The position numbers and the translations under genes are program-made. Of a DNA stretch of 41,113 nucleotides, positions 5,242 through 35,519 are shown piece after piece. This DNA is from a virus, in the UHGV virus genome UHGV-0041836. The stretch is one strand, 5' to 3'. Every line of letters starts with the position of its first letter. Positions within the stretch are counted from its first letter, which is position 1. The notes beneath the pieces are model-generated. The model had not been told where the DNA came from, ran no database searches, and saw only the letters and a list, made by a program, of their open reading frames with translations.

Positions 5242-5327
5242 TTAATTTGCTCCAGATACAAGGAATCACCGAAGCATGGCTACGATGAATTTTGGGCATA
5301 AAAAAANNNNNNNNNNGGATAATTTTG

Positions 5328-6805: not shown

Positions 6806-7054
6806 ATGGCAAAGGGTGTGTCAATTTCTCCAACTACGGTAAGAATCCCTGAATCTTTACGCGAGGCTCTTGCTGTCAGAGCATCAAAAAATGGTCGCTC
6901 TGTTAACTCCGAGATCGTCATGATTTTGCAAGCCGCGATTGATGAAGATAGGTCGCCAAAGTCAGTTGAGTCATTTGCTCAGCAAGAAGCTGACAAATTC
7001 AAAGAGGCGCTGCTTGAGACGCTAAAGACCATGTATGGTAAGGATGAAAAATAA
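6806..7054 (+). CDS. mnt: Mnt-like ribbon-helix-helix repressor
   Basis: 82 aa; RIPESLREALAVRASKNGRSVNSEIVMILQAAI resembles P22 Mnt N-terminal RHH DNA-binding domain. Confidence 0.8.
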   Translation: MAKGVSISPTTVRIPESLREALAVRASKNGRSVNSEIVMILQAAIDEDRSPKSVESFAQQEADKFKEALLETLKTMYGKDEK

Positions 7055-7590
7055 TGCTGCACACAATTCATTTCTTATGCCCCGTTAACACTGCCACTGT
7101 TGGGCAACTTCAGAACCACTGTCTCACCGCATTATCTCAAGGCGCAACTGAATTAAATATCCATATATCAAGTCAGGGAGGGGAAACTGCCGCTGGCTTT
7201 ACTGCGTATAACTTTCTTAAGTCACTCCCTGTTACCGTTAGAACTCACAACATAAGCAATGTTGAATCCATAGCTAATATCGTTTTCCTGGCTGGCTCAG
7301 AACGTTTCGCAAACCCATTATCAAGATTCCTGTTACATCCTCTATTATGGGGCTTTGCCTCCCCAGCCGCCGACCATGCCAGATTGAGAGAGTACGGGAA
7401 ATGCCTCGATAACGATCTTGATCGCTTCGTTGAGACGTTCAATATCGACATCGGAACCCATATTAGGTGGGCATCCCTGATAGCAGACTCGACCATTTTG
7501 GATGCTAACAAGGCTCTTGAGCATGGCATAATTAATTCCATAAAAACTGCAAGGCTGGCATCCAATCAGGCAAACTGGTGGGTTGTTTGA
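7054..7590 (+). CDS. ClpP-fold (S14/S49-like) serine protease homologue, translationally coupled to mnt
   Basis: 178 aa; ELNIHISSQGGETAAGFTAYNFL aligns with ClpP YINSPGGVITAGMSIYDTM; candidate catalytic Ser in NVESIANIVFLAGS (cf. ClpP GQAASMGAFLL) and His in LLHPL (cf. MIHQP). Start ATG overlaps mnt stop (TAATG). By-eye alignment only. Confidence 0.6.
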   Translation: MLHTIHFLCPVNTATVGQLQNHCLTALSQGATELNIHISSQGGETAAGFTAYNFLKSLPVTVRTHNISNVESIANIVFLAGSERFANPLSRFLLHPLLWGFASPAADHARLREYGKCLDNDLDRFVETFNIDIGTHIRWASLIADSTILDANKALEHGIINSIKTARLASNQANWWVV

Positions 7591-7615: not shown

Positions 7616-7644
7616 AAAAAACCCACCTGACGGTGGGTTTTATT
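7616..7644. terminator. bidirectional rho-independent terminator between the convergent ClpP-like and toxin-like genes
   Basis: AAAAAA-CCCACC-TGAC-GGTGGG-TTTTATT: perfect 6-bp stem flanked by A-run and T-run. Confidence 0.6.
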
Positions 7645-8065
7645 AGTGCTTGTATAGCTTGAACTCCCTGTCGAGCCATAAGACATAAAAAGTGGCTCCT
7701 ATCTTATAACCAACCATAGGTGCCTTAGAGCAAAATCTGAACGCAATGAAATCCACATCTTGAGTAACATGCTTAGGAATCGGAGCCTTTATCGCGTTTC
7801 TGGCAATTTTTTCCGTCCCAAGCCCGTGTTTATCAGATTTTCGTATCTCATCCCATGACATCTGACTTAACCTGAACAGCCTATCTGCAAATGCTGCCTT
7901 TTCATGCTTTTGGCAGCAATCTAGGCAATACCCCTTTTGTAGGTATCTAAGAGAAAATACAGGCGGACTTTTGTCTACATCATGAGATTCGTGATGGATA
8001 GAGAGGCCAACAGTAGCAGAGCTCTCTTTATCCCTCTGTTTTATTCTTCCCTTAACTCTAGACAT
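7643..8065 (-). CDS. uncharacterised 140-aa protein, candidate toxin partner of the upstream Panacea-domain protein
   Basis: ORF begins 5 bp downstream of the Panacea-domain ORF on the same strand; Cys-rich (CLDCCQKH); no family recognised by eye; an R-x4-H (RKSDKH) is noted but not diagnostic. Confidence 0.5.
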   Translation of the reverse strand: MSRVKGRIKQRDKESSATVGLSIHHESHDVDKSPPVFSLRYLQKGYCLDCCQKHEKAAFADRLFRLSQMSWDEIRKSDKHGLGTEKIARNAIKAPIPKHVTQDVDFIAFRFCSKAPMVGYKIGATFYVLWLDREFKLYKH

Positions 8066-8070
8066 ACACG

Positions 8071-8520
8071 TCAGTTAATTAACGTTTTGAAAAAACCTTT
8101 CATAGAATCAAGTGTGATTTCTTGGCTAACCGCACCCTCAATGTAAGCATCTTTCCATGGCTGCTCTTCGTGAGTCATATTGCGCAGTTTCCAGGCAGAA
8201 AACTGACCATAAACTTTATACACCTCATCCAGCAATTCAATTTCATCTTCACTGAATTTTTTAGCGTCAAAGTTTTCTGGCGCAGGTAAAGCTCCGTTAC
8301 CACAGTCCCTATATTTACGATACAATTCAGGAACTACTGGCCCATGCATCCAGGCTTCAATTTTCTCATTAAATAGCGGCTTACCCAGAAGAACCAGAGA
8401 AAACCCTTGGGCATAATACGTCAACTTCTGAATTTTTAGGTTAGAGATAATGTCGCCACTTTCTTCATCGCAATGCGCCAAGAAGTAGTCGGCGACATCA
8501 AAACAAGTGAGCATAAACAT
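8071..8520 (-). CDS. Panacea-domain (DUF4065, SocA/GepA-like) protein, candidate antitoxin
   Basis: 149 aa; DVADYFL...ISNLKIQKLTYYAQGFSLVLLGKPLFNEKIEAWMHGPVVPELYRKY matches the DUF4065/Panacea signature (LKLQKLLYYAQGW...GPV.P..Y) as recalled. Confidence 0.7.
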   Translation of the reverse strand: MFMLTCFDVADYFLAHCDEESGDIISNLKIQKLTYYAQGFSLVLLGKPLFNEKIEAWMHGPVVPELYRKYRDCGNGALPAPENFDAKKFSEDEIELLDEVYKVYGQFSAWKLRNMTHEEQPWKDAYIEGAVSQEITLDSMKGFFKTLIN

Positions 8521-8888: not shown

Positions 8889-9278
8889 GTGAGGCAATTT
8901 CTTGCTGCTATGTTCTTATTCATATCTTTTGGGGCTACAGCAGAGTGCTGGGTAGTTGGAGATATGCGCGGAATAAGCTATTCAGAACGAAATAATTTCC
9001 AACCAGAAGAAGATGGTTTTAGTGGAACATTCATCATTAAGACAAGCGGTGAAGATGCCAGCATCACATATTCTGGGGCAGATGCGGGCGGCATGGCTTA
9101 CAAAGCATTGTCTAAAAACTCCATCATAGGAATCGGCGCAAATGGCGAAACTCAACGCGTTATCGACTCATGGGTAATACATCCTACTGGAACAGTTTTA
9201 ATGTCAAAAACCATTTCCGGTTATGGAAATATGGATTCAACCAAAGCTTTTGTTGGAAAAGTAAAAAGAAAATGTTAA
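8889..9278 (+). CDS. small secreted protein (Sec signal peptide, AxA cleavage site), moron of unknown function
   Basis: 129 aa; GTG start with AAGGAGG RBS 6 nt upstream; N-terminal hydrophobic segment FLAAMFLFISFGATA followed by EC; Cys near both ends of the mature protein; opposite strand to the flanking late genes, preceded by a 368-bp AT-rich region. Confidence 0.6.
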   Translation: MRQFLAAMFLFISFGATAECWVVGDMRGISYSERNNFQPEEDGFSGTFIIKTSGEDASITYSGADAGGMAYKALSKNSIIGIGANGETQRVIDSWVIHPTGTVLMSKTISGYGNMDSTKAFVGKVKRKC

Positions 9279-32664: not shown

Positions 32665-32895
32665 TTAAGCGGCCATTAATTCAGGCCAGATGCTTTCCCA
32701 ATCAACCGGATGAAGGTCTTTGCGAGTCACTTCACCATTGCTGAACTTCTCAATCAGAACACAAAGTGCTGCGCCCAATTCATGATTACGGCTAAGTGCT
32801 TTCCTCAAATAGCCGATAGAAGTTCCGCACTTGGTGGCAAATTCTCTCTGCTCTTCCAGTGAAAGGGAGTTCAGATACAAGCGGAGTTCTTCCAT
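32665..32895 (-). CDS. cro: Cro-like HTH repressor
   Basis: 76 aa; HTH QREFATKCGTSIGYLRKAL; first gene of the rightward operon, divergent from cI. Confidence 0.75.
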   Translation of the reverse strand: MEELRLYLNSLSLEEQREFATKCGTSIGYLRKALSRNHELGAALCVLIEKFSNGEVTRKDLHPVDWESIWPELMAA

Positions 32896-32926: not shown

Positions 32927-32997
32927 GAGTTTACCTGTAGGTAAAAAGCAAATCAATACCCATAGGTTATTTACCGGCAGGTAATCAAAGATAGAAT
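32927..32997. promoter_or_regulatory. oR operator/promoter region (pR on minus strand, pRM on plus strand)
   Basis: Operator half-site pattern TTACCTGTAGGTAA (32931-32944) and TTACCGGCAGGTAA (32971-32984); minus-strand -35 TTGATT / 17 nt / -10 TAAACT; plus-strand -10 TAGAAT before cI. Confidence 0.6.
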
Positions 32998-33003
32998 TAA
33001 ATC

Positions 33004-33690
33004 ATGGATAAATACGAACAAAGACGACTAAGGCTGATAGAGATAAGAGACCGATTCTGTAATGGAAAGGCCTCAGAGTTGGCTCGTCGAATAGAAAGGG
33101 AACCATCATACGTTTCCAGAATGCTGTATCCGGAAGGAAAAAGCGGAAAAAAACGCATTGCTGACGATATGATGGAACTAATTGAAAAATCTTTTAATCT
33201 CCCACGCGGATGGATGGACATGCTTGCAGATGGTAAAGCTGGAGCTACAGACCATCTTGAGTTTGCGGGTAACGTTCGTGCGGGTTTTGTTCCGGTAATT
33301 GGTGAAGCCGTTTTGGGAGTTGATGGCTCAGTGGATATGATTGAATTCAGATCCGGTTGGTTAAGCATCTACAGCGGCGATAAAGATGCTTACGGTCTGA
33401 AGGTTAAGGGTGACAGCATGTGGCCAAGGATTCAGTCAGGAGAATATGTTGTTATTGAACCAAATACGCCAGTACATCCAGGTGATGAAGTCTTTGTAAG
33501 GACCAAAGACGGTCACAACATGATAAAGATCATGAACAAAACAAGAGACGGTGATTATCAGTTTAGTAGCATAAACAGTGATCACCGCCCAATCACTCTT
33601 CCTGTTGAAGAAGTTGATAAAATGCATTTTGTTTCAGCTATTGTGAAACACACCAGGTACGTAGACCAGGACGATCTGCCAAAAGTTTGA
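33004..33690 (+). CDS. cI: CI-type repressor with C-terminal S24 (LexA-like) autopeptidase domain
   Basis: 228 aa; N-terminal HTH region; C-terminal GDSMWP...KIM Ser-Lys dyad context typical of S24 peptidases; divergent from cro. Confidence 0.9.
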   Translation: MDKYEQRRLRLIEIRDRFCNGKASELARRIEREPSYVSRMLYPEGKSGKKRIADDMMELIEKSFNLPRGWMDMLADGKAGATDHLEFAGNVRAGFVPVIGEAVLGVDGSVDMIEFRSGWLSIYSGDKDAYGLKVKGDSMWPRIQSGEYVVIEPNTPVHPGDEVFVRTKDGHNMIKIMNKTRDGDYQFSSINSDHRPITLPVEEVDKMHFVSAIVKHTRYVDQDDLPKV

Positions 33691-34001
33691 GGATAAAGCA
33701 GCAAGTGTTTATACCCGGCATAGTAGTCGCTGTTGTAATCATCTGCTTCATATGGGCAAAGTTATCTCCTGTAAGCTCTAAGCATACAGCTGAACTCATG
33801 AAGAAGAAGCATCTTATACATGAGGCAGAATCGATAATTAAAAAGTTCAAAGGCATGTCATACGACGACATGTCATCAGAGCAGATTGCTATGTATAAAT
33901 GCGCCATTGAGCGTCTTGACTACTTAAACGGACTCAAACCCAAACACACCCCAGTAGAATCAAAATTGCCGCAATGGCCAAGCAATCCAAATAGCTTCTG
34001 A
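33687..34001 (+). CDS. small N-terminally membrane-anchored protein in the rex position (downstream of cI); non-ATG start
   Basis: 104-aa track ORF starts at TTG 33687 (alternative GTG 33705); hydrophobic segment IPGIVVAVVIICFIWAKL; AT-rich codon usage; followed by a strong terminator. Confidence 0.4.
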   Translation: MRIKQQVFIPGIVVAVVIICFIWAKLSPVSSKHTAELMKKKHLIHEAESIIKKFKGMSYDDMSSEQIAMYKCAIERLDYLNGLKPKHTPVESKLPQWPSNPNSF

Positions 34002-34012
34002 CATCTCCTTTC

Positions 34013-34060
34013 AGCCCCCCCAACCGGGGNNNNNNNNNNNNGAAAGGGGGGCTTTTTTAT
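34013..34060 (+). terminator. rho-independent terminator after the cI operon (loop contains a 12-N gap)
   Basis: AGCCCCCC ... GGGGGGCT 8-bp stem followed by TTTTTTAT; N-run 34030-34041 lies in the loop. Confidence 0.6.
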
Positions 34061-34078: not shown

Positions 34079-34163
34079 TTACCTGAAAATTCAAGCAGGT
34101 AAACTCTTACATCAATTTTATTTACCTACAGGTATAGACAGCTGTTTTACCTGTAGGTATATT
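34079..34163 (+). promoter_or_regulatory. oL operators and pL promoter
   Basis: TTACC-N-GGTA operator sites at 34079-34102, 34122-34135, 34147-34160 (same motif as oR); -35 TAGACA (34135-34140), 17-nt spacer, -10 TATATT (34158-34163). Confidence 0.65.
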
Positions 34164-34432: not shown

Positions 34433-34759
34433 ATGGATGCACAAACACGCCGCCGCGAACGTCGCGCAGAGAAACAGGCTCAATGGAAAGCAGCAAATCC
34501 CCTGTTGGTTGGGGTAAGCGCAAAACCAGTTAACCGCCCTATTCTCTCGCTGAATCGCAAACCAAAATCACGAGTAGAAAGCGCACTGAATCCGATAGAC
34601 CTTACAGTGCTGGCTGAATACCACGAACAGATTGAAAGCAACCTGCAACGTATTGAGCGCAAGAATCAGCGCACATGGTACAGCAAGCCACGTAGTGAAA
34701 TGGGTGTGACTTGTGTTGGTCGCCAGAAAATGAAATTAGGCAGCAAACCACTTATTTGA
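34433..34759 (+). CDS. N: antitermination protein N (lambda type)
   Basis: 108 aa; MDAQTRRRERRAEKQAQWKAANPLLVGVSAKPVNRPILSLNRKPKSRVESALNPIDLTVLAEYH matches lambda N arginine-rich motif and body as recalled. Confidence 0.95.
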   Translation: MDAQTRRRERRAEKQAQWKAANPLLVGVSAKPVNRPILSLNRKPKSRVESALNPIDLTVLAEYHEQIESNLQRIERKNQRTWYSKPRSEMGVTCVGRQKMKLGSKPLI

Positions 34760-35096: not shown

Positions 35097-35519
35097 ATGG
35101 AAGAACAAGCAAACAAGATTCTCGTAGAACTTCTGCAAAAAGCCAGTAATGGAATAGACGCGGCTGTTTCATTTAGCCAGGCACAGATTCCTGATGTTGT
35201 TCGTCAGTTGCTAACATGGAGTTTTGTCCATAGCGCACTTTTCCAAGTGGCTGGGTTGTTGCTTTTAATTGCAGCAATGAAACTTCCTAGTTTTGCAAGA
35301 ACGGCAAGAAATAATGGCGAGAGATGGACGTCTTTAGATGGATGTCCAAACGATAGATATTTTATATCTTCGTTTTATTACGATATATGCACTGTATTTG
35401 CTCCTATATTTGGCTCAATTATTGGCGTTTTAATTATTGCCTTCAATTTCGAATGGTTGAAGATTTGGCTTGCACCTAAGTTATTCCTAATTGAATATGC
35501 AGCATCATTGGTTAAGTAA
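35097..35519 (+). CDS. two-transmembrane-helix membrane protein, possible SieB-type superinfection-exclusion protein
   Basis: 140 aa; hydrophobic segments LLTWSFVHSALFQVAGLLLLIAAM and FAPIFGSIIGVLIIAFNF; AT-rich codon usage; pL-operon position where lambdoid phages carry sieB/exclusion morons. Family assignment is a guess. Confidence 0.4.
   Translation: MEEQANKILVELLQKASNGIDAAVSFSQAQIPDVVRQLLTWSFVHSALFQVAGLLLLIAAMKLPSFARTARNNGERWTSLDGCPNDRYFISSFYYDICTVFAPIFGSIIGVLIIAFNFEWLKIWLAPKLFLIEYAASLVK

Follow-up and report, generated by a model that had tools for sequence, protein, structure and literature searches.

orf98, a small membrane-protein gene behind the cI repressor of a P22-like prophage, and its possible role in superinfection exclusion

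Introduction

Genes carried on the repressor transcript of a prophage are among the few phage genes that are on in every lysogen. That exclusion and defence functions can come from such genes is proven by rexAB, sieA, hex and stk. In lambda, it is the rex genes that serve as lysogen-expressed exclusion genes. The UHGV virus genome UHGV-0041836, a stretch of 41,113 nucleotides (nt) that we call the window and to whose full length all coordinates refer, raises the question of what a prophage keeps at this place, as a small open reading frame (ORF) directly follows its cI repressor gene. Is this frame a gene, is it expressed with the repressor, and what could its product do for the lysogen?

Here, we report that the frame is a conserved gene, which we designate orf98, and that it encodes a predicted single-pass membrane protein of PHROG_10450, a family labelled 'hypothetical' in every source. 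It is an uncharacterised family within a well-known kind, the repressor-linked prophage moron. Our analyses revealed that the family occupies two genomic slots next to prophage repressors and that it diverges rapidly, and we consider whether it may act in superinfection exclusion.

Results

orf98 is a conserved gene of 98 codons

We compared the window with a set of 34 related loci drawn from phage records, complete chromosomes and IMG/VR contigs. An intact plus-strand ORF after cI, as the initial annotation had described, is present throughout and ends at 34001 in the window. It is free of frameshifts and stops in 34 of the 34 loci, which carry 12 DNA alleles. The 19 variable sites comprise the start-codon site, 10 synonymous sites and 8 nonsynonymous sites, the latter mostly conservative. 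The ratio of nonsynonymous to synonymous polymorphism (pN/pS) is about 0.20 for orf98 (S = 60, N = 234 sites); in these loci, cro, cI and N have values of 0.11-0.14.

The start codon had been left open between TTG and GTG, giving 98-104 codons, and four observations settle it on the shorter alternative. Position 33705 reads GTG in the window and in phage mEp043, and ATG in 24 of 35 copies. In the divergent module L035, the cI stop lies in the frame of the ORF, one codon ahead of its ATG, and an upstream extension is therefore impossible there. The distant homologs all start with M-[F/Y/W]-I-[P/S], aligned with the residue coded at 33705. Finally, the 98 positions of the PHROG_10450 profile (1-98) align with residues 7-104 of the 104-amino acid (aa) reading (E = 1.4e-54). 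The true orf98 is thus 33705-34001, a gene of 98 aa with a GTG start 14 nt past the cI stop, and it does not overlap that stop as had been supposed. The TTG at 33687 was rejected as a start: it belongs to the conserved end of cI, and both the polymorphism at 33705 and the L035 stop speak against it.

The ribosome-binding site is not especially weak, contrary to the initial annotation, as a GAGGA motif lies 11 nt upstream of the GTG, overlapping the cI stop; in another divergent module, L036, the equivalent GAGGA lies 8 nt upstream of a GTG start. The AT-rich codon usage ascribed to the ORF proved to be mild. Its GC content is 41.4%, compared with 43.1% for cI and 46.8% for the window, and the value at third codon positions is 46.5%.

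Two other features were considered for this segment. An antisense ORF (33638-33907) was rejected because one of the alleles interrupts it with a stop and the homolog loci do not conserve it. With regard to an RNA element, an Rfam scan returned no family at threshold in the orf98 region. The small RNA svsR, reported from the 3' end of a different cI (PMC12803456), has no evident bearing on orf98.

orf98 lies on the cI transcript

The immunity region of the window is lambdoid and reversed relative to the conventional lambda orientation. The cro-like gene is followed by operators, cI, orf98, a hairpin with a T run, operators and a promoter resembling OL and PL (the left operators and promoter), and a lambda-type N gene:

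32665-32895, minus strand: cro-like gene
32970-32997, plus strand: PRM-like promoter, TTTACC-16 nt-TAGAAT (consensus scan; identical in the prophage of E. coli PA45B, L003 1784-1811)
33004-33690, plus strand: cI repressor, 228 aa, LexA-like S24 peptidase (Pfam PF00717, 1.4e-17; PHROG_4)
33689-33693, plus strand: Shine-Dalgarno-like GAGGA, overlapping the cI TGA at 33688-33690 (read from the sequence)
33705-34001, plus strand: orf98, 98 aa, PHROG_10450 family, GTG start, TGA at 33999-34001 (comparative)
33705-33761, plus strand: region coding for the predicted N-terminal transmembrane (TM) helix, residues 1-19, MFIPGIVVAVVIICFIWAK (hydropathy)
34013-34058, plus strand: intrinsic terminator (t_imm analogue), apparently corrupted by an assembly artefact; true form AGCCCGCAAAGCGGGCT + T6 (34 related loci)
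34079-34163, plus strand: OL operators (TACCNNNNGGTA-type palindromes) and PL-like promoter, TAGACA at 34135-34140 and TATATT at 34158-34163 (mEp043 'putative PL'; promoter scan)
34433-34759, plus strand: lambda-type N gene

The rex position assigned to the ORF was therefore correct: orf98 is on the cI strand, in the interval from cI to OL/PL, and a terminator separates it from the latter. The promoter scan found only one upstream plus-strand promoter-like site in a sensible position, TTTACC-16-TAGAAT. Since the -10 element of this PRM-like site ends 6 nt ahead of the cI ATG, the sequence suggests that the cI-orf98 mRNA is leaderless, as is the mRNA from lambda PRM. The same scan revealed no credible internal promoter for orf98, for which only the 14-nt gap after the cI stop would be available, and the PL-like site lies 3' of the terminator. 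Given this short gap and the lack of a promoter of its own, we straightforwardly infer that orf98 is co-transcribed with cI from PRM and PRE, and hence made in lysogens.

The distribution of the gene supports co-transcription. Across the related loci, orf98 is strictly linked to the cro-OR-cI-OL cassette, at 98-100% identity, while the surroundings of the cassette are mosaic: cII and the replication genes as well as the N leader and the genes further downstream. Moreover, this cI occurs in 52 of 5426 complete E. coli genomes, and orf98 also occurs in 52 of the 5426. The gene calls of PGAP have missed it in essentially all of these 52 genomes; one genome has a truncated call of 67 aa.

The window and mEp043 share this cassette on different backgrounds. 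In the immunity region examined, identity between the window and phage mEp043 is about 99%, and the two cI proteins are 100% identical. In mEp043, the identical type of immunity cassette sits on a lambda-type siphovirus, whereas the ORF map of the window is that of a P22-like podovirus prophage, with integrase, tailspike, ant/arc/mnt, gene 16/20/7, coat, portal and terminase. The window and the E. coli PA45B prophage are essentially identical in the two parts that were compared, one running from cII to about 35.5 kb and the other covering the tailspike-ant junction.

Two further genes of this region deserve mention. The cro-like protein has a match to Pfam YdaS_toxin that narrowly misses the threshold, at 26 bits where 30 are required, and the 2012 annotation of mEp043 labels it 'prophage antirepressor'. 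Just after ral in the PL operon, a hydrophobic ORF of 140 aa (35097-35519, plus strand), apparently multi-TM by eye, has no Pfam match and is carried by only some relatives (L003, L013 and L014); it is uncharacterised membrane cargo.

A short intrinsic terminator follows orf98

The strong terminator that had been noted after the ORF is real, but its described shape, an 8-bp G/C stem with a gap of 12 N in the loop, is an artefact of the window. All 34 related loci, including the complete chromosomes and mEp043, read CAGCCCGCAAAGCGGGCTTTTTT after the orf98 stop. This uncorrupted sequence forms a 7-bp stem, with six GC pairs, around an AAA loop (AGCCCGC-AAA-GCGGGCT-T6). It folds with a dG of -12.6 kcal/mol (z = -3.4), only 3 of 200 shuffled sequences folding as well, and it has the GC-rich hairpin and the T run just past the stop that characterize a rho-independent terminator. 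At the equivalent place, L035 has a hairpin of different sequence followed by T7.

The hairpin version of the window (C7...N12...G6) is 24 nt longer and is found in the window alone. Its N run (34030-34041) starts 28 nt past the orf98 stop, and the reading frame is therefore unaffected, which removes the earlier worry that resequencing might alter it. A second run of 10 N (5307-5316) lies in the intergenic terminator region between tailspike and ant, flanked by inflated A and C homopolymers, in a region that exceeds its counterpart in the complete PA45B genome by 34 nt; the signature is the same as that of 34030-34041. Both runs are best read as draft-assembly artefacts, judging from these comparisons.

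The family shares one N-terminal helix and a basic helical domain

An exhaustive HMMER search retrieved same-sized homologs at 31-42% identity, and a profile search added homologs from E. coli, E. fergusonii, Salmonella and Citrobacter; the family also occurs in Shigella. Its members measure 97-114 aa, have one hydrophobic segment throughout and share the motifs LIxEA, CAIERL and WP; K34, E40, C66 and W91-P92 are among the conserved positions. A search of the literature by family identifier found no publication, and the orf98 protein has no match in Pfam, NCBIfam or the PDB. In PADLOC-DB 2.0, the window protein has no defence match; one of eight family members has a single non-significant match (E = 0.01).

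The topology and structure were analyzed on an alignment of 13 family members. The single N-terminal hydrophobic helix of the initial annotation was confirmed, as all 13 members have a hydrophobic segment at residues 1-19; in the window protein, the hydropathy maximum is 2.84 (residues 1-17). In all 13 members, no lysine or arginine precedes the helix and one to four follow it, and the remainder of the protein is net positive. From this distribution, the positive-inside rule predicts an N-out/C-in topology, with a basic helical hairpin of about 75 aa in the cytoplasm. The lone invariant cysteine would be easier to reconcile with a cytoplasmic domain. The AlphaFold2 model built from the 13-sequence alignment (pLDDT 79) consists of a helix at residues 5-47, comprising the TM segment and a stalk, a second helix at residues 58-76, and a tail with the invariant W91-P92. 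The conserved positions fall at helix-packing spacing, and the fold is probably conserved and the surface variable.

orf98 diverges faster than its neighbours

Three divergent modules, L035, L036 and L050, show the same cI-then-orf98 arrangement, with cI 84-85% identical to that of the window. Between the window and L035/L036, the cI proteins are 84-85% and the Cro proteins 89-92% identical, while the orf98 proteins are 40-42% identical. On the nucleotide level, identity is about 75-85% in cro-OR-cI, drops to 40-55% right from the cI stop, a fall from about 78% to about 50%, and returns to 72-82% at the OL/PL element, which forms the edge of the immunity cassette. Nonsynonymous divergence (dN) is 0.48-0.61 for orf98 against 0.07-0.10 for cro and cI, so that orf98 diverges 5-6 times faster than these genes at nonsynonymous sites. 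The synonymous differences (pS 0.63-0.86) are saturated in all three genes, and the modules are thus anciently diverged throughout; a recent exchange of the cassette is not favoured as an explanation of the drop, as the synonymous sites of cro and cI are saturated too. Between L050 and L036, the ORFs are 70% identical, while cI is apparently near-identical (read by eye from the translation, not aligned). Such fast-but-constrained evolution is typical of proteins that face changing phage or host partners, without being specific to them.

The family occupies two repressor-linked slots

The first slot (slot A), directly after cI, holds the family in the window, in mEp043, in metagenomic relatives and in the divergent modules L035, L036 and L050. 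The second (slot B) holds a second subfamily of 102-114 aa in P22-like prophages, where it was found in 25 of 25 IMG/VR loci, in phage N7 and in L039-L042. There, the family member follows mnt in the same direction and converges with gene 16, from which about 24 nt separate it. In P22, sieA occupies exactly this position. Type-A SieA was found in no family-bearing locus, and a tblastn search with SieA was empty in the window and the homolog loci. The N7-type paralog occurs in 57 of the 5426 complete E. coli genomes and is annotated in all 12 records listed.

The window, itself a P22-like prophage, carries its family member in the cI slot and not, as the second subfamily does, between gene 16 and gene 9. 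No second copy was found in its own sieA slot, where the 178-aa ORF at 7054-7590 is ClpP-like. Beside gene 16, and convergent with that gene, stands an ORF of 129 aa (8889-9278, plus strand) that has a signal peptide and, after it, a mature part with cysteines at either end. It is homologous to phage 434 Hex along its entire length, at 27% identity (E = 2e-12). The Hex family thus uses the slot after cI in phage 434 and the one next to gene 16 in the window, the reciprocal of the orf98 family, and two unrelated families therefore share both slots interchangeably. As a side observation on Hex, its reported cytoplasmic action on RecA and the repressor fits poorly with a signal peptide, and the 434 record states that the Hex paper inferred a wrong start codon.

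Other phages fill the cI slot differently. Lambda has rexAB there, and phage H-19B (L047 3301-4004), whose cI is 50% identical to that of the window, has a HigB-toxin/HTH pair (PF09907, 4.5e-30) that is missing from the annotation, together with other ORFs. The cI-downstream slot is a general cargo site. One contig of 38,108 bp, IMGVR_UViG_2563366933_000009 (L007/L071), has a family member in both slots, and it is the only one common to the 29 cI-slot and 25 gene-16-slot contigs.

In slot B, the allele of the family member tracks the type of gene 16 (L051-L075, L046). N7-type members accompany N7-type gp16 at 91-100% identity, and P0024-type members accompany L041-type gp16 at 92-93%. The gp20, gp7 and mnt-side genes are mosaic, while the member and gene 16 behave as a linkage unit; this co-inheritance may be a matter of mere adjacency.

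Several further genes were seen in the corresponding regions. In some P22-like prophages, as in L041 (2196-2886) and L046 (3080-3920), mnt and the family member are separated by two more small genes, coding for a zinc-ribbon protein (CxxC...CxxC) and a coiled-coil one-TM protein with a weak XhlA match (5.8e-5). Together with the family member, they could form a multi-gene module expressed in lysogens. In the immI region of the window, a Mnt/Arc-like ribbon-helix-helix gene (6806-7054, plus strand) is directly followed by a ClpP-like ORF of 178 aa (7054-7590, plus strand; PF00574, 4.8e-12), which is unusual cargo for a lysogen operon. Beyond it, in the cargo region between gene 16 and tailspike, a Panacea/SocA-type antitoxin-like ORF (8071-8520, minus strand; PF13274, 2.2e-24) has beside it a 140-aa partner of no known family (7643-8065, minus strand). 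The pair (7643-8520) looks like a toxin-antitoxin or defence pair.

Discussion

Comparison with known lysogen-expressed proteins

The cI slot invites a comparison with lambda Rex. Both systems lie between cI and OL/PL on the cI strand, have no promoter of their own ahead of the first gene and are read from the cI transcript, presumably so in the case of orf98. However, lambda has two genes, for a 279-aa RexA and a 144-aa multi-TM RexB, whereas orf98 encodes a single 98-aa protein with one TM helix. The profile comparison gives hhalign probabilities of 0.4% with RexB and 0.05% with RexA; the position is shared with lambda rexAB, but kinship with it is not supported.

The Hex protein of 434 is the closer parallel in arrangement. 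The single hex gene directly follows cI, whose stop it adjoins or overlaps, and is expressed from PRM, and both slots are used by its family as well. In contrast to orf98, Hex measures 134 aa and has a cleavable-looking signal peptide and terminal cysteines; the orf98 protein has no signal peptide match, and the hhalign probability is 0.1%. Hex was reported to inhibit the RecA-stimulated cleavage of repressor and to stabilize lysogens in a recA-dependent manner (PMC3564112), which is not exclusion.

With P22 SieA, the second subfamily shares the slot, and both are prophage-expressed inner-membrane proteins, as predicted in the case of orf98. SieA, however, has 164 aa and about four TM segments by the same method, as opposed to about 100 aa and one TM helix in the orf98 family; the probability of homology with type A by hhalign is 0.4%. 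The three known types of SieA share the multi-TM profile (PMC10883804).

Gp15 of HK97 bears the nearest resemblance in architecture. It is small, has a TM helix at its extreme N-terminus, a basic flank and a helical C-terminal part, and it is encoded by an accessory prophage gene with its own terminator. The differences are its length of 62 aa, 36 fewer than orf98, and its location within the tail gene cluster and not beside the repressor; the hhalign probability is 0.8%. Cumby et al. (2012) reportedly showed that gp15 blocks the entry of the HK97 genome at the inner membrane. In position, slot A has its closest counterparts in rexAB and hex, and slot B in sieA.

A possible role in superinfection exclusion

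Taken together, these comparisons allow the following proposal. orf98 would encode a single-pass inner-membrane protein, whose basic helical hairpin faces the cytoplasm. It would be read from the cI transcript, initiated at PRM in lysogens and at PRE during establishment, and translated from its own GAGGA/GTG site beside the cI stop; the transcript would end at the hairpin just ahead of OL/PL. The protein would then be made continuously in lysogens. The family as a whole is fast-evolving cargo of two repressor-linked, lysogen-expressed slots in lambdoid and P22-like phages, one after cI and the other after mnt and beside gene 16, and its members would exclude superinfecting phages by interfering with genome delivery or early infection, in a manner similar to gp15 and SieA but without being related to either. 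A prophage-expressed inner-membrane exclusion protein is the best explanation that we can offer; we hold it tentatively, at somewhat less than an even chance. The homologs in the sieA slot and the fast evolution strengthen it, if indirectly. The reciprocal slot use of the Hex family, the lack of type-A SieA in the family-bearing loci, the gp15-like architecture and the uniform topology signal of the 13 members also speak for it.

Several points weigh against this proposal. The occupancy of the slots is circumstantial, as other cargo, such as toxin-antitoxin pairs and a ClpP-like gene, is found in them too. It is also less obvious how a domain facing the cytoplasm would block periplasmic ejection proteins than it is for the multi-pass SieA. 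None of SieA, Hex, RexA, RexB and gp15 shows homology in the hhalign comparison (probability no higher than 0.8%), and the fold searches retrieved only generic helical hairpins. The fast evolution could stem from relaxed constraint on a small scaffold and not from an arms race. In addition, L036 has no dedicated terminator at this place apart from the OL palindrome.

A broader version of the exclusion proposal concerns the family as a whole. It is possible, though we think it less likely than not, that these proteins constitute a new superinfection-exclusion or defence family, in which a fast-evolving scaffold of about 100 aa with one TM helix and a domain facing the cytoplasm moves between cI/PRM and mnt operons and is co-inherited with the gp16 type in the gene-16 slot, while annotation largely misses the cI-slot form.

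Alternative explanations

The alternative that survives best is that orf98 acts in lysogeny maintenance or host physiology, for example as a Hex-like modulator of induction or as a membrane-tethered regulator of a host protein in the inner membrane, for instance FtsH or a transporter. Hex sits in this slot too, arranged in a like manner relative to the cI stop, and has the reported recA-dependent stabilizing effect described above (PMC3564112), orf98 is linked strictly 1:1 with one cI type, and the predicted cytoplasmic domain would lie where cI, RecA and FtsH act. On the other hand, the other subfamily is linked to mnt, which codes for a ribbon-helix-helix repressor that is not cleaved through RecA, and to gene 16, so that a role as a cI-specific partner does not generalize. 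orf98 also diverges several-fold faster than the cI that it would recognize, and it has no homology to Hex. We regard this alternative as unlikely.

An abortive-infection effector appears less likely still. Such a protein would oligomerize upon superinfection and depolarize or permeabilize the inner membrane, in the manner of RexB or a holin, so that the cell dies and the clone is protected. The slot shared with lambda rexAB and the small size of a membrane protein inferred to be constitutive in lysogens are consistent with this mechanism, and the weak PADLOC match mentioned above was to a '2TM effector'. Furthermore, the N7 and L041 copies follow the zinc-ribbon and XhlA-like membrane proteins, which might serve as sensor and partner. 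However, the cI-slot copy and the L042 copy stand alone, without a sensor partner; the protein has one TM helix only and is mostly a soluble basic domain; and the PADLOC match is non-significant and limited to that one member, with no homology to RexB.

Finally, that orf98 is a chance frame in the 3' untranslated region of the cI transcript, or that an RNA or the antisense ORF is the real feature, is very improbable and appears effectively refuted by the comparative data, given that the missing PGAP calls, the non-ATG start of the window and the mere four protein clusters of a first word-indexed search are set against divergent homologs at 31-48% identity that retain length, frame, N-terminus and motifs, a pN/pS and, where measurable, a dN/dS of about 0.2, the lack of frameshifts and stops in 34 loci, an antisense frame that is broken in one allele and unconserved, and an Rfam scan that was empty at threshold.

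Significance for prophage biology

The family is present in about 2% of complete E. coli genomes, with the 52 cI-slot copies and 57 N7-type alleles among the 5426. The reciprocal use of the two slots by the orf98 and Hex families provides a simple rule for locating further lysogen-expressed cargo. Should orf98 not act in exclusion, the present analysis still corrects the annotation of what is then an ordinary accessory gene of a prophage. If the exclusion proposal is correct, the gene would add a new exclusion determinant that is compact and easy to clone, and its natural allelic series, ranging from 42% to 99% identity within an otherwise conserved module, would be useful for mapping specificity. 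If the broader proposal of a new family also holds, its members would recognize incoming ejection proteins in an allele-specific manner from the cytoplasmic side of the membrane.

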